A DNA stretch of 64,000 nt from an uncultured Gemmatimonadales bacterium (GTDB lineage Bacteria > Gemmatimonadota > Gemmatimonadetes > Gemmatimonadales > GWC2-71-9). Position 1 is the first letter of the stretch, and every line of letters begins with the position of its first letter. The DNA lies in assembly GCA_963798915.1 (NCBI GenBank), contig CAWCVB010000015.1:15518-79517 (forward strand). Reading direction: 5' to 3'. The position numbers are program-made. This document shows positions 42,701 through 45,700 of the stretch, one piece after another.

Positions 42701-45700
42701 TCGCTTCGCAGTAGGCGTAGAGCAACTTGGCGCCGTGACGAATGATGCCGCCGTGCTCCTGGGCCACGCCAGGCAGGAACCCCGGGACATCCACCAAGGT
42801 GACGATCGGAATATTGAAGCAGTCACAGAACCGAATGAACCGGGCGGCCTTGGTGCTGGCATTGATGTCCAGCACGCCGGCCAGGACCGCCGGCTGATTG
42901 GCGACGATCCCAACCGGTCGTCCCAACAGCCGACCAAACCCCACCACGATGTTATCCGCGAAGCCGGCATGTACCTGGACGAAGTGGCCGTCGTCCACAA
43001 CCGGGCGGATGATATCCAGCATATCGTATGGCTGCGCCGCGGCGAGGGGCACGACATCGAGCAGGCTCTCCTCCCGGCGTTCGGCGGAGTCGTCGGTCGG
43101 CCGGATCGGAGGAGCGTCGACATTGTTGCCCGGCAGAAATCCCAGCAGTTCGCGGATGGCCTGCAGCGCCGCCGGTTCGTTGTCGTACGTGAAATGCGAC
43201 ACGCCGGAGACGGCCCCGTGCACGTCCGCGCCACCCAGCTCGTCGAAGCTCACGTCCTCATGCGTCACGGTCTTCACCACGCTCGGGCCAGTCACGAACA
43301 TGTAACTCACCTGCCGGACCATGAAGATGAAGTCCGTAATGGCCGGGCTGTACACGGCGCCGCCGGCGCACGGGCCCAAAATGGCACTGATCTGGGGAAT
43401 CACGCCCGACGCAAGCGTGTTGCGCAGGAAGATGTCGGCATAGCCGCCCAGCGAAGCGACGCCTTCCTGGATGCGGGCGCCTCCCGAGTCGTTCAGTCCG
43501 ACCAGGGGCGCCCCGTTCCGCATGGCCAGATCCATGACCTTGCAGATCTTTTCGGCGTGCGCCTCCGAGAGGGAGCCGCCGAAGACGGTGAAATCCTGCG
43601 AGAAGACGTACACCAGCCGTCCCTCGATCCGGCCGTGTCCGGTGACGACACCGTCGCCAGGGTACTTCTCCCCGTCCAGTCCGAACTCGGTCGCACGATG
43701 GGTAACAAATCGATCCAGTTCCTGAAAGGATCCCTCGTCCAGCAGCAGGTCGAGCCGTTCCCGCGCGGTGAGCTTCCCCTTCTTGTGCTGCTGCGCCACC
43801 CGCCGCTCGCCGCCTCCTTGCTCGGACGCAGCCTGCCGGCGGTGCAGGTCGTCGAGGCGTTCTCTGGATTGGGTCATGGGCAGAATGTAGGGGAAGCCGG
43901 TGGGTGGCGCGAGGTATCGGGCCATGGCGGCCGACTCTTTCCAAAACTGCCAACGCAAAGACGCGGAGGCGCAGAGGTCGCGGAGGAACGCTTCGCAGCG
44001 CGTTCAAATGGCGCCCGCTCGACCCTGTGCTAAGTGTAACGTGGAGAATGTCAATCGAGTTGCCTCAGAATGCGCTCAGCCAGCGCATTATCGGCGCCGC
44101 CATCGAGGTCCACCGAATTGTCGGACCGGGGCTACTCGAGTCCGCCTACCAGCGATGTATGGAGGCCGAACTGGAGTTGCGTGGCATTCCGTTTCGGAGC
44201 GGCATTGCACTGCCGATTCACTACAAGACGCTCGAGTTCGAGAATGCCTACCGGCTGGATCTACTGATCGCAAACCAGGTCGTGGTTGAGCTGAAGTCTA
44301 TCGAGGAAGTTCTTCCCGTGCACTCCGCGCAGTTACTCACGTATTTGCGCTTAACCAGCCACAAGCTGGGGCTGCTCATCAACTTCAATGTGCCGGTACT
44401 CTGGCGCGGTATATCTCGTGTCGTCAATAATCTGTAGACTCGGCGTCCTCTGCGCCTCCGCGGTTGATTCCAAGGGTCCACGAAGCCGGCCTGAGCAGTG
44501 GAAACGAAAAAGCCCCCGATTGCTCGGGGGCTTCTGCACAGCAGCCGGTTGCCCTACTCCGACGCGGGTGGGACAGTCTCATCCGTGGATTCCTCGCCCT
44601 CATCCCCCTCGGTGGGAATGGGTCGGGCCGCCTTGGCCCGATTGGCCGCCATTTCCTCTTCGGTGGTCTCGGGATACCCGACGACCGCGAGGACGATGCG
44701 GTGATGGATGGGATCGACTTCCAGCACTGACATGTCGACCGGCTGGCCTTCCTGCACCGCGTCGCCCGGATTCTGGACATCGGGCTTGCCAAGCTGCGAG
44801 ACGGGCACGAAGCCCTCGATGTCGTTACCCACATCCACGACGACGCCCTTGTCCATCAAGCGCAGCACGACGCCACGCAACTCCATGCCGATGGGATAGG
44901 TCTCACCGATCCGCAGCCATGGATCTTCCTGCGCCTGCTTGAGGCCCAGGCTGATCCGCTTGTTTTCGGCGTCGATATTGAGGATCAGCACCTCGACCGA
45001 GTCGCCCTTCTTCACCACTTCCGACGGGTGCTGCACCCGCTTGGTCCAGGACATGTCGGAGATGTGGATCAGGCCATCGATACCGGGCTCGATCTCGACG
45101 AAGGCGCCGAAGCTGGTGAGGTTGCGGACCTTGCCCTCCAGCCGGGTGCCGACGGGGTACTTGAGCGGCAGCACCATCCACGGGTCCTGCTCGGTCTGCT
45201 TCATGCCCAGCGAGATCTTTTCCTCGCTCTCGTCGACCTTGAGCACGACGGCTTCGATGGTCTCGCCGATCGAGACGATCTTGGACGGATGGCGGACGTT
45301 GCGGGTCCAGCTCATTTCGCTGATGTGAACCAGCCCCTCGATGCCGGGCTCCAGCTCCACAAAGGCGCCGTAGTTGGTGATCGAGACGACCTTGCCCTGG
45401 ACCCGCGAGCCCACCGGATACTTCTGGGCCACGTCCTTCCAGGGATATGACTGCAGCTGCTTCATGCCGAGCGAGATGCGCTCGCGCTGCCAGTCGATGT
45501 CGAGGATCTTGACCTCGAGCTCCTGGCCGATCTGGACCATTTCGCTGGGATGCGAGACCCGCCCGTAGGACATGTCCGTAATGTGCAGCAGGCCGTCCAC
45601 ACCACCCAGGTCGATGAAGGCACCGAAATCGGTGACGTTCTTGACGACACCCTTCCGGACCTGGCCGACTTCGAGCTCCTTCATCAGGTGCTCGCGCTTG

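Follow-up and report, generated by a model that had tools for sequence, protein, structure and literature searches.

GxxExxY genes and lineage-matched tandem arrays: a candidate two-part mobile system of microbial chromosomes

Why should a small gene for a predicted nuclease lie between two inverted arrays of a short repeat, while further arrays of the same kind are scattered through the genome? The question is raised by a locus of an uncultured Gemmatimonadales bacterium (GCA_963798915.1; its genome is called G000 below), located on contig CAWCVB010000015.1 in a 64,000-nt stretch of DNA that was analysed as a whole and is referred to as the window. Here, we describe the gene and its arrays, compare them with homologous loci in other genomes and weigh the explanations that could account for the pairing.

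Gene, arrays and host flanks in the window

The GxxExxY gene (44048..44437, plus strand) encodes a protein of 129 amino acids. The survey's finding had placed it between inverted 9-nt tandem arrays; the arrays are indeed inverted and point inwards, but the unit is a 7-nt core, C-R-C-N-R-A-G, set at a graded spacing of 8, then 8-9 and then about 10 nt. Aimed at the gene from the left are four CGCRRAG units spaced 8, 8 and 9 nt apart (43954..43985, plus strand), and aimed at it from the right are three units spaced 8 and 9 nt apart (44439..44462, minus strand), which begin 1 nt past the stop codon. Outside each array follows a leader of about 10 nt. The left one (43945..43953, plus strand) is of the AACTGCCAA type common to many free elements of G000, while the right one (44463..44471, minus strand) is of the GGAATCAAC type, the second leader class among these elements. 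A putative -10 box, TAACGT (44037..44042, plus strand), stands 5 nt before the ATG and is possibly a leaderless promoter inside the cassette. A sigma-70 promoter and terminator scan made no call, neither for this box nor for the hairpin described below. By eye, a TAnnnT box likewise stands 5 nt before the ATG in the homolog loci L083, L086 and L089.

The cassette is antisense to both neighbours, rpsA for ribosomal protein S1 on its upstream flank (44554..46395, minus strand) and a pccB/mmdA-like acyl-CoA carboxyltransferase gene on its downstream flank (42492..43877, minus strand; TIGR01117 match below its cut-off). A GC-rich host hairpin after rpsA (44509..44533, no strand assigned), terminator-like by eye, marks the junction that holds the cassette. 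The direct repeat of 6 bp around the cassette is at chance level (2/16 G000 elements). Single arms fold weakly (-5.1 and -4.1 kcal/mol) and the two arms together pair at -34.1 kcal/mol; an Rfam search of five loci (25,705 bases) at gathering score gave no match, and TRF did not report the arrays of the window cassette. Contigs of four sequencing runs, compared at 80% likeness, derived from other organisms and spanned hardly any of the cassette. The one joint across it carried foreign letters between the arms and side 24 and was taken for a free pair of another organism.

The protein belongs to the GxxExxY family by its match to TIGR04256 (E 2.4e-41, 140.7 bits, cut-off 35), and its sole Pfam match is PF13366 (PDDEXK_3; E 9.9e-40, 136 bits, cut-off 22). 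Its predicted structure (pLDDT 94.8) has the PD-(D/E)xK fold with the predicted catalytic residues E31, D71, E81 and K83, all four of which are kept in 240 of 249 family proteins that remained after removal of near-duplicates, and with a QxxxY motif (Q95, Y99). Based on the fold and the D/ExK motif we assign it to the PD-(D/E)xK superfamily, with nuclease activity as a prediction. The top-ranked solved structure in both fold searches was Cas4 SSO0001, as a weak match (Foldseek E 2.6e-3; Z 7.9, rmsd 2.9, 99 residues aligned). Foldseek gave nothing at E <= 0.001, and a PDB sequence search with the family alignment gave no match. Further fold matches were other PD-(D/E)xK nucleases, with tRNA-splicing endonucleases in low-ranking rows. 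With Cas4/RecB-family nucleases (SSO0001, Pcal_0546, lambda exonuclease), which give the top-ranked but weak fold matches, the protein has the D...ExK and QxxxY motifs in common. Unlike Cas4, however, GxxExxY proteins are much shorter and show no four-cysteine Fe-S cluster in their alignment: invariant and near-invariant columns are free of cysteine, the window protein has a single one, and no cas genes neighbour its gene in the window. Among 120 listed of the 226 longer relatives found, 99 have two domains in tandem; the first domain alone keeps the four residues in 95 of these 99, which suggests an oligomeric enzyme with nicking variants.

Array architecture and its pairing with the protein

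Arrays consist of two to four units, which are asymmetric, tandem and non-palindromic. In the class of the window, most arms have a first gap of 8 nt (145 of 201) and a second one of 8-9 nt (142 of 167); for the third, 10 nt is the commonest length. The survey had counted a mixed period against the system; what looked mixed is this conserved graded spacing, the mark of a built site and not of a slippage repeat. A strict three-unit pattern matched 23 times in G000 compared to 0, 0 and 0 times in three fifth-order Markov genomes, and a looser array pattern 39 times compared to 0 for its reversed control. Arms within one locus are more alike than shuffled ones (identity 0.91 vs 0.85, spacing match 0.88 vs 0.50). 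The array ends vary, with the leader outward in G000 and the array tail outward at a junction in a genus of 57 genomes that is described below.

Are such arrays a regular companion of the gene? The survey had reported flanking arrays at 14 of 47 homolog loci. The best 80 of 568 confirmed GTDB loci, a sample that leans to the window's clade, yielded 76 scorable ones, and 60 of these 76 have an inverted flank match, far above the earlier share; of 99 control ORFs taken at these loci, 2 have one. Both sides carry inward arrays at 59/76 homolog loci and at 0/99 control ORFs; among the relatives of the window, an inverted match is present at 16 of 27 scorable loci. Direct flank repeats also occur (14/76), and the direct matches that had raised doubt in the survey stem from doublet-gene-doublet arrangements. 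Locus L082 is an example of a GxxExxY gene without arrays.

For a wider comparison, loci from a Bacteroidota family, a second phylum and metagenomes were added, giving 270 full-length genes in 280 loci; of the 249 proteins mentioned above, 27 without an array or with an unclassed one were dropped, which left a tree of 222. Both arms belong to the same class at 164 of 179 loci with arrays on both sides. Three repeat classes occupy the tree (RAG 109, GAT 82 and AAW 31 proteins), with CRCRRAG units in the window's clade and CRC-R-GAT or CACGAAA/CRCGAAT units in others. Reading the tree as a query-driven sample from few searches, with kin that are not independent and few alignment columns, we counted 14 class changes, compared to a shuffled mean of 90.5 and to none as low among 200 shuffles. 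Pairs of proteins share their class in 4114 of 4465 cases at 50-60% identity and in 1439 of 11766 at 30-40%. Proteins of the RAG class come under 11 phylum labels, one of them archaeal. Nested within this class, a subclade of seven proteins uses GAT throughout, having switched as a block; in its helix-1 residues it is similar to the main GAT clade (one replicate, with exceptions). Linkage by itself would lead repeats to track the gene tree and could account for part of this co-phylogeny; only the persistence of non-coding 7-mers at protein identities of 50-60% goes beyond it and would imply selection. Going by these comparisons, gene and arrays very probably form a cognate functional pair.

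Gene-less pairs and changing junctions

Based on rough gene calls made in this analysis, 38 arrays of this architecture were kept in G000: one inside a gene, two flanking the GxxExxY gene and 35 that are free and intergenic. The survey had listed 17 free copies, nearly all between genes. Their position is borne out (37/38 intergenic), their number is not, and 28 of the 35 stand in inverted pairs. A partner was scored at <=360 bp inward or <=60 bp outward, which was satisfied by only 28 of 5000 random windows. Free inverted pairs are mostly 95-190 bp long. Within a pair, both leaders are usually of the same type (p 0.003), whereas the likeness of units gave p 0.13. Some interiors are common to pairs on different contigs (C2:88529 with C5:69805; C5:50154 with C1:314745), indicating that gene-less elements have reached distant sites as complete copies, and on C7 the free elements form alternating head-to-tail clusters. 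Target duplication above chance was not found in 16 G000 elements. Interiors of free pairs gave only short, chance-level matches to the gene-flanking regions of relatives, so there is no support for an origin of the pairs by internal deletion of a cassette. Empty alleles of the G000 free pairs were sought in five congeners and none could be recognised, the regions being too divergent or part of a paralog cluster. Some free elements adjoin MazF-like, HigB-like or Uma2 genes.

G000 also carries free arrays of two further classes. Its GxxExxY gene, which the survey took for the only one, is the only intact one; a decayed remnant of another clade lies at C1:102411-102539, beside its own CACAGAT array. 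The family is present in 24 of 41 relatives, in 32/101 genomes of one Bacteroidota family and in 52/101 of another phylum. A single genome may hold as many as 12 matches to the family, and intergenic array matches reach about 120 per genome. Among 52 within-genome paralog pairs from 18 genomes (fetched loci only, not every copy), none reaches 70% identity and the maximum is 63%. Genomes hence carry few divergent GxxExxY lineages, each usually with its own repeat class, and no IS-like multiplication is seen.

This distribution bears on the possibility that the arrays are moved by a RAYT/IS200-type enzyme or by host recombination and that the GxxExxY gene merely hitch-hikes between them. Orphan arrays would fit such a passenger. 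CACGAAA arrays were found in 9 of 41 genomes, among them 5/5 with a clade-B gene, and in 4 of the 9 (82-91% complete) no clade-B gene was found; CAGAT arrays occur in G001, G002, G004 and G006, where no clade-C gene was found. The mismatched genomes are 69-98% complete, so both gene loss and non-assembly could account for them. Other genomes show arrays and genes in step: G003 and G007, rich in RAG arrays, have neither the clade-B gene nor CACGAAA arrays, and G009 (100% complete) has CACGAAA arrays and lacks both CRCRRAG arrays and the clade-A gene. Out of step are the clade-D genes of G024, which bear CGCGGAA/G-like units, close to the RAG class. A passenger would also be in keeping with the share of co-phylogeny that linkage can explain and with three Y1-transposase-like genes in G000; however, these lie elsewhere, and none is flanked by the arrays. 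Against it also stand the presence of the gene in almost all array-rich genomes (14 of 24 genomes with the gene are array-rich, compared to 1 of 17 without it, G023 included), the constancy of the RAG class across its phylum labels and its block-wise switch together with the protein, and the swap of whole cassettes with their own repeats at one site (see below). We consider a mere passenger unlikely.

Gene junctions tell where cassettes come and go. The window's rpsA junction was compared in 30 loci: rpsA is non-adjacent in 9, the gene is absent in 15 and the junction is filled in 6, all within the genus. Several of the 15 gene-less junctions hold unrelated inverted tandem arrays. At the six filled ones, the GxxExxY genes are 55-85% identical to that of the window, compared to 90-92% for the flanking gene. 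G001 and G006 contain a closely related inner cassette in opposite orientations, with CACGGAG arrays nested inside CGCAGAG arrays. In G046, an insert of 656 bp interrupts an overlapping stop/start and the site is empty in 4/4 matching congeners, one of which has flanks 90-92% identical; the insert has ATGA on both sides, which selection could equally produce, and two inward pairs that form direct repeats around the gene.

At the junction in the genus of 57 genomes, 30 loci comprised 12 empty ones, 2 with a slightly longer spacer without arrays, 3 with a back-to-back doublet only, 7 with doublet-gene-doublet (some degenerate), 4 with unrelated 7-nt repeats and 2 without a flank. The empty state measures 22-24 nt, also in relatives 93-98% identical, and no consistent target duplication was found there. 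At one site of another genus, 10 of 14 matching genomes carry a clade-A gene with CACAGAG arrays and the other 4 a gene of a different clade with CACGAAT/CACTAAT arrays, i.e. the whole cassette has been swapped. Elsewhere there are arrays on their own, decayed genes flanked by arrays that are still intact, and a four-fold tandem amplification. A site with arrays alone could be a landing pad or what a deletion left behind. Host genes at other junctions are presumably trpE/trpG and cysD/cysN. At a shared site in G280, a four-helix-bundle-like gene with its own repeats stands in the place of GxxExxY; we take it to belong to the 23S rRNA intervening-sequence protein family (PF05635). Such genes with 6-7-nt tandem repeats resemble our system in that a small gene lies between short tandem arrays at the same type of junction, whereas protein and repeat are unrelated to those of GxxExxY. 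A description of this gene and its tandem repeats as a system was not found in the literature searched.

Known systems and a candidate mechanism

The survey had proposed a gene-plus-repeat system with a predicted nuclease. The flank counts, the clade-tracking repeat class and the switching junctions all argue for it, and we regard the system as real, widespread and apparently undescribed. A superfamily review gives the function of the PDDEXK_3/GxxExxY family as 'Unknown' (PMC3424549). In other papers, GxxExxY appears as a cas4-like neighbour of an RT (10.1101/2021.01.26.428298) and by name (PMC12085832), and PF13366/PDDEXK_3/TIGR04256 are mentioned once more (PMC9756366). As in the survey, which had found the GxxExxY literature silent on repeats, full-text searches returned nothing that links the two; subscription papers and bioRxiv supplements lay mostly outside their scope, so an earlier description is possible.

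The closest parallel is REPIN-RAYT. There, a chromosomal enzyme gene is flanked by its own repeat class and accompanied by non-autonomous inverted extragenic doublets of about 100 bp; plasmids seldom or never carry the RAYT gene, which makes no copies of itself, and each of several groups maintains a repeat population of its own (10.1101/2021.07.10.451892; PMC3733652). Both the extragenic inverted doublets and the enzyme gene with cognate repeats have their counterparts in the GxxExxY system, and the TIRtrons described in PMC3733652 work similarly. In contrast to REPIN-RAYT, the GxxExxY enzyme is a predicted PD-(D/E)xK nuclease instead of an HUH/Y1 tyrosine transposase, its repeats are asymmetric 7-mers in graded tandem arrays instead of palindromic REPs, and its gene is patchy, swapped, inverted or absent at the same junction instead of keeping a fixed, vertically inherited site. 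GxxExxY also occurs in archaea, where REPINs are reported as undetected (10.1101/2021.07.10.451892). With insertion sequences and their MITEs, the system has in common the inverted ends around one gene and short gene-less pairs in families that share interiors; it differs in that near-identical gene copies within a genome, a consistent target duplication and a DDE, HUH or serine catalytic module were not found. Free-standing homing endonucleases insert at gene junctions, give filled and empty alleles among relatives and spread by cut-and-repair. GxxExxY cassettes resemble them in their place at gene junctions, in their filled and empty alleles (the latter at the G046 site and the junction in the 57-genome genus) and possibly in such a spread, but use many unrelated junctions, have gene-less derivatives and appear, judging by the pairing of clade and repeat, to aim at their own repeats and not at an empty host allele.

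How could a predicted nuclease and its arrays give rise to such patterns? Genome comparison shows a pairing of clade and class, gene-less derivatives and gain, loss, swap and one inversion at gene junctions. We suggest that the GxxExxY protein binds to those arrays on DNA that are cognate to it, probably as an oligomer, and that its PD-(D/E)xK site would nick or cut at or near them. As the protein has no strand-transfer or HUH module, joining would be left to host repair, which may recombine arrays and copy short array-bracketed pieces. Repair of this kind could seed free pairs at new intergenic sites, let a cassette move into, or replace, the stretch between resident arrays, and flip, amplify or delete it. 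The proposal agrees with the finding that neither fixed ends nor target duplications are seen, and equally with the direct-repeat doublets, the amplifications and the inversion. Taken as a whole, this cut-and-repair account, in which a two-part chromosome-resident mobile system works in analogy to REPIN-RAYT with an unrelated enzyme, appears probable to us, although by no means assured.

Three further explanations were weighed. If the arms paired in the transcript, the protein might act as an RNase that processes mRNA at operon junctions and tunes host operon expression, comparable to 23S intervening sequences or Cas6. The co-orientation of many cassettes with both neighbours within operons (82 of 148 determined loci, a crude estimate), the likeness of arms within a locus and the fold shared with tRNA-splicing endonucleases would agree with such a role. 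However, the arms lack a bias of G.U over A.C on the sense strand (91 vs 97 over 177 loci), which lends an RNA stem no support, the window's cassette runs antisense to its two host neighbours and lies flipped in a relative, and the arm likeness within G000 pairs comes from the leader and not from the units. Since processing of RNA by itself also leaves dispersal unexplained, we find this role quite unlikely. A toxic nuclease in defence or addiction, restrained by binding to the arrays as operators or decoys, with dispersed arrays as a by-product, would suit the Cas4/RecB-like fold, the patchy distribution with its many broken gene copies and the MazF-like, HigB-like and Uma2 neighbours of some free elements. 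Yet PADLOC has no family for the window protein and gave weak matches for only 1 of 4 proteins tested, the cassette contains no partner gene, and families of gene-less pairs with common interiors on different contigs go unexplained, which makes a toxin quite improbable. A classical insertion sequence, i.e. a stand-alone cut-and-paste transposase with arrays as TIRs and free pairs as MITEs, could claim the leader-plus-array ends of usually one type per free pair, the many free pairs of about 150-190 bp and the one clean insert with ATGA on both sides, but is very improbable given the divergence of within-genome paralogs, the inconsistent target sites, the scarcity on plasmids (8/72,556) and in viral loci (3) and the absent DDE or HUH module.

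Returning to cut-and-repair, a bolder form can be stated, which we put forward tentatively and would not call probable: GxxExxY itself may be the enzyme that mobilises a selfish DNA of a new class; as such it would be a nuclease which reads a clade-specific 7-bp unit (helix-1 residues 18-22 change twice with the unit's last base), spreads REPIN-like pairs by cutting arrays and moves its own gene between them. It would then belong to a guild of small genes, unrelated to one another and each equipped with private tandem arrays, all in competition for the same operon junctions in bacteria and archaea.

Three findings go beyond the earlier reading: most free copies form inverted pairs, in families with shared interiors; the class of repeat goes with the clade of the protein; and one and the same junction can be empty, array-only or filled in different genomes. 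A common family without an assigned function thereby gains a candidate substrate, the pairing of clade and repeat offers a direct test of specificity, and the system accounts for a large unnamed class of intergenic repeats. Inverted, lineage-matched arrays together with scattered gene-less pairs point towards a type of mobile DNA that has apparently not been described. Should the movement be driven by the enzyme, the system would mobilise repeats with a hydrolytic nuclease instead of a transposase, would mean that the REPIN-RAYT way of life arose a second time independently, and would provide a very small natural family of sequence-specific DNA enzymes.

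Two-domain proteins and further repeat classes

Tandem two-domain proteins form a large subfamily of the GxxExxY family (P0001-P0099, among the longer relatives listed), and 95 of these 99 listed proteins no longer have the catalytic residues in their second domain. Another clade of the family is accompanied by a different, TCCGAAT-like unit (loci L189 and L419-L421). Since this unit escaped the array motif used for the class counts, there are more GxxExxY repeat classes than were counted.

Amplification and possible effects at homologous loci

At loci L195 and L430, inspection by eye suggests that the downstream host gene takes its GTG start from the last bases of the right array, while in the empty allele compared with them (L431), likewise examined by eye, this gene starts with ATG. 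Two further loci, L374 (genome G260) and L370 (G255), show a four-fold tandem repetition of the 3' half of the GxxExxY gene together with its array, and free pairs standing in tandem adjoining the gene.

Gene remnants and neighbours of free elements

A GxxExxY gene of clade C survives in the genome of the window (G000) as a decayed remnant of its 3' part, adjoining a CACAGAT array (contig C1:102411-102580), and this genome also retains a second, weaker fragment (C17:25404-25487). One free element (C1:308800-309000) is broken after its left array by a 3' fragment that looks IS110-like from its sequence. HigB-like and MazF-like toxin-antitoxin modules lie amid tandem free-element copies in L313 (C7:8600-12800), and these copies may carry or trap the modules. 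Genes for a 23S-rRNA-intervening-sequence protein (four-helix bundle; L316:1177-1530) and a Uma2 nuclease (L314:2246-2761) also occur near free elements.

Other tandem arrays in the window and at the rpsA junction

A 9-nt tandem repeat family unrelated to the GxxExxY system is very abundant (L311:6285-6370 and many places in genomes G001-G006). Near the 3' end of the carboxyltransferase gene beside the cassette, a frame change (window ~42490-42530, minus strand), beyond which the usual C-terminal part runs on in a different frame, is either an assembly error or a real break. Between host genes of the window lie four unrelated 7-8-nt tandem arrays, with the units AGGGTCG (x19.7; 29511-29644), GCTGAAG (x6, with an inverted counterpart; 10350-10438), CGTCGAC (15082-15110) and CGGCGAGA (3068-3103), which probably represent other gene-plus-repeat systems. 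Where GxxExxY is absent from the rpsA-carboxyltransferase junction, other inverted tandem arrays often occupy it instead (L121, L123, L126, L133 and L136, the last from the unpublished genome G023), and the junction is thus a hotspot for several repeat families.
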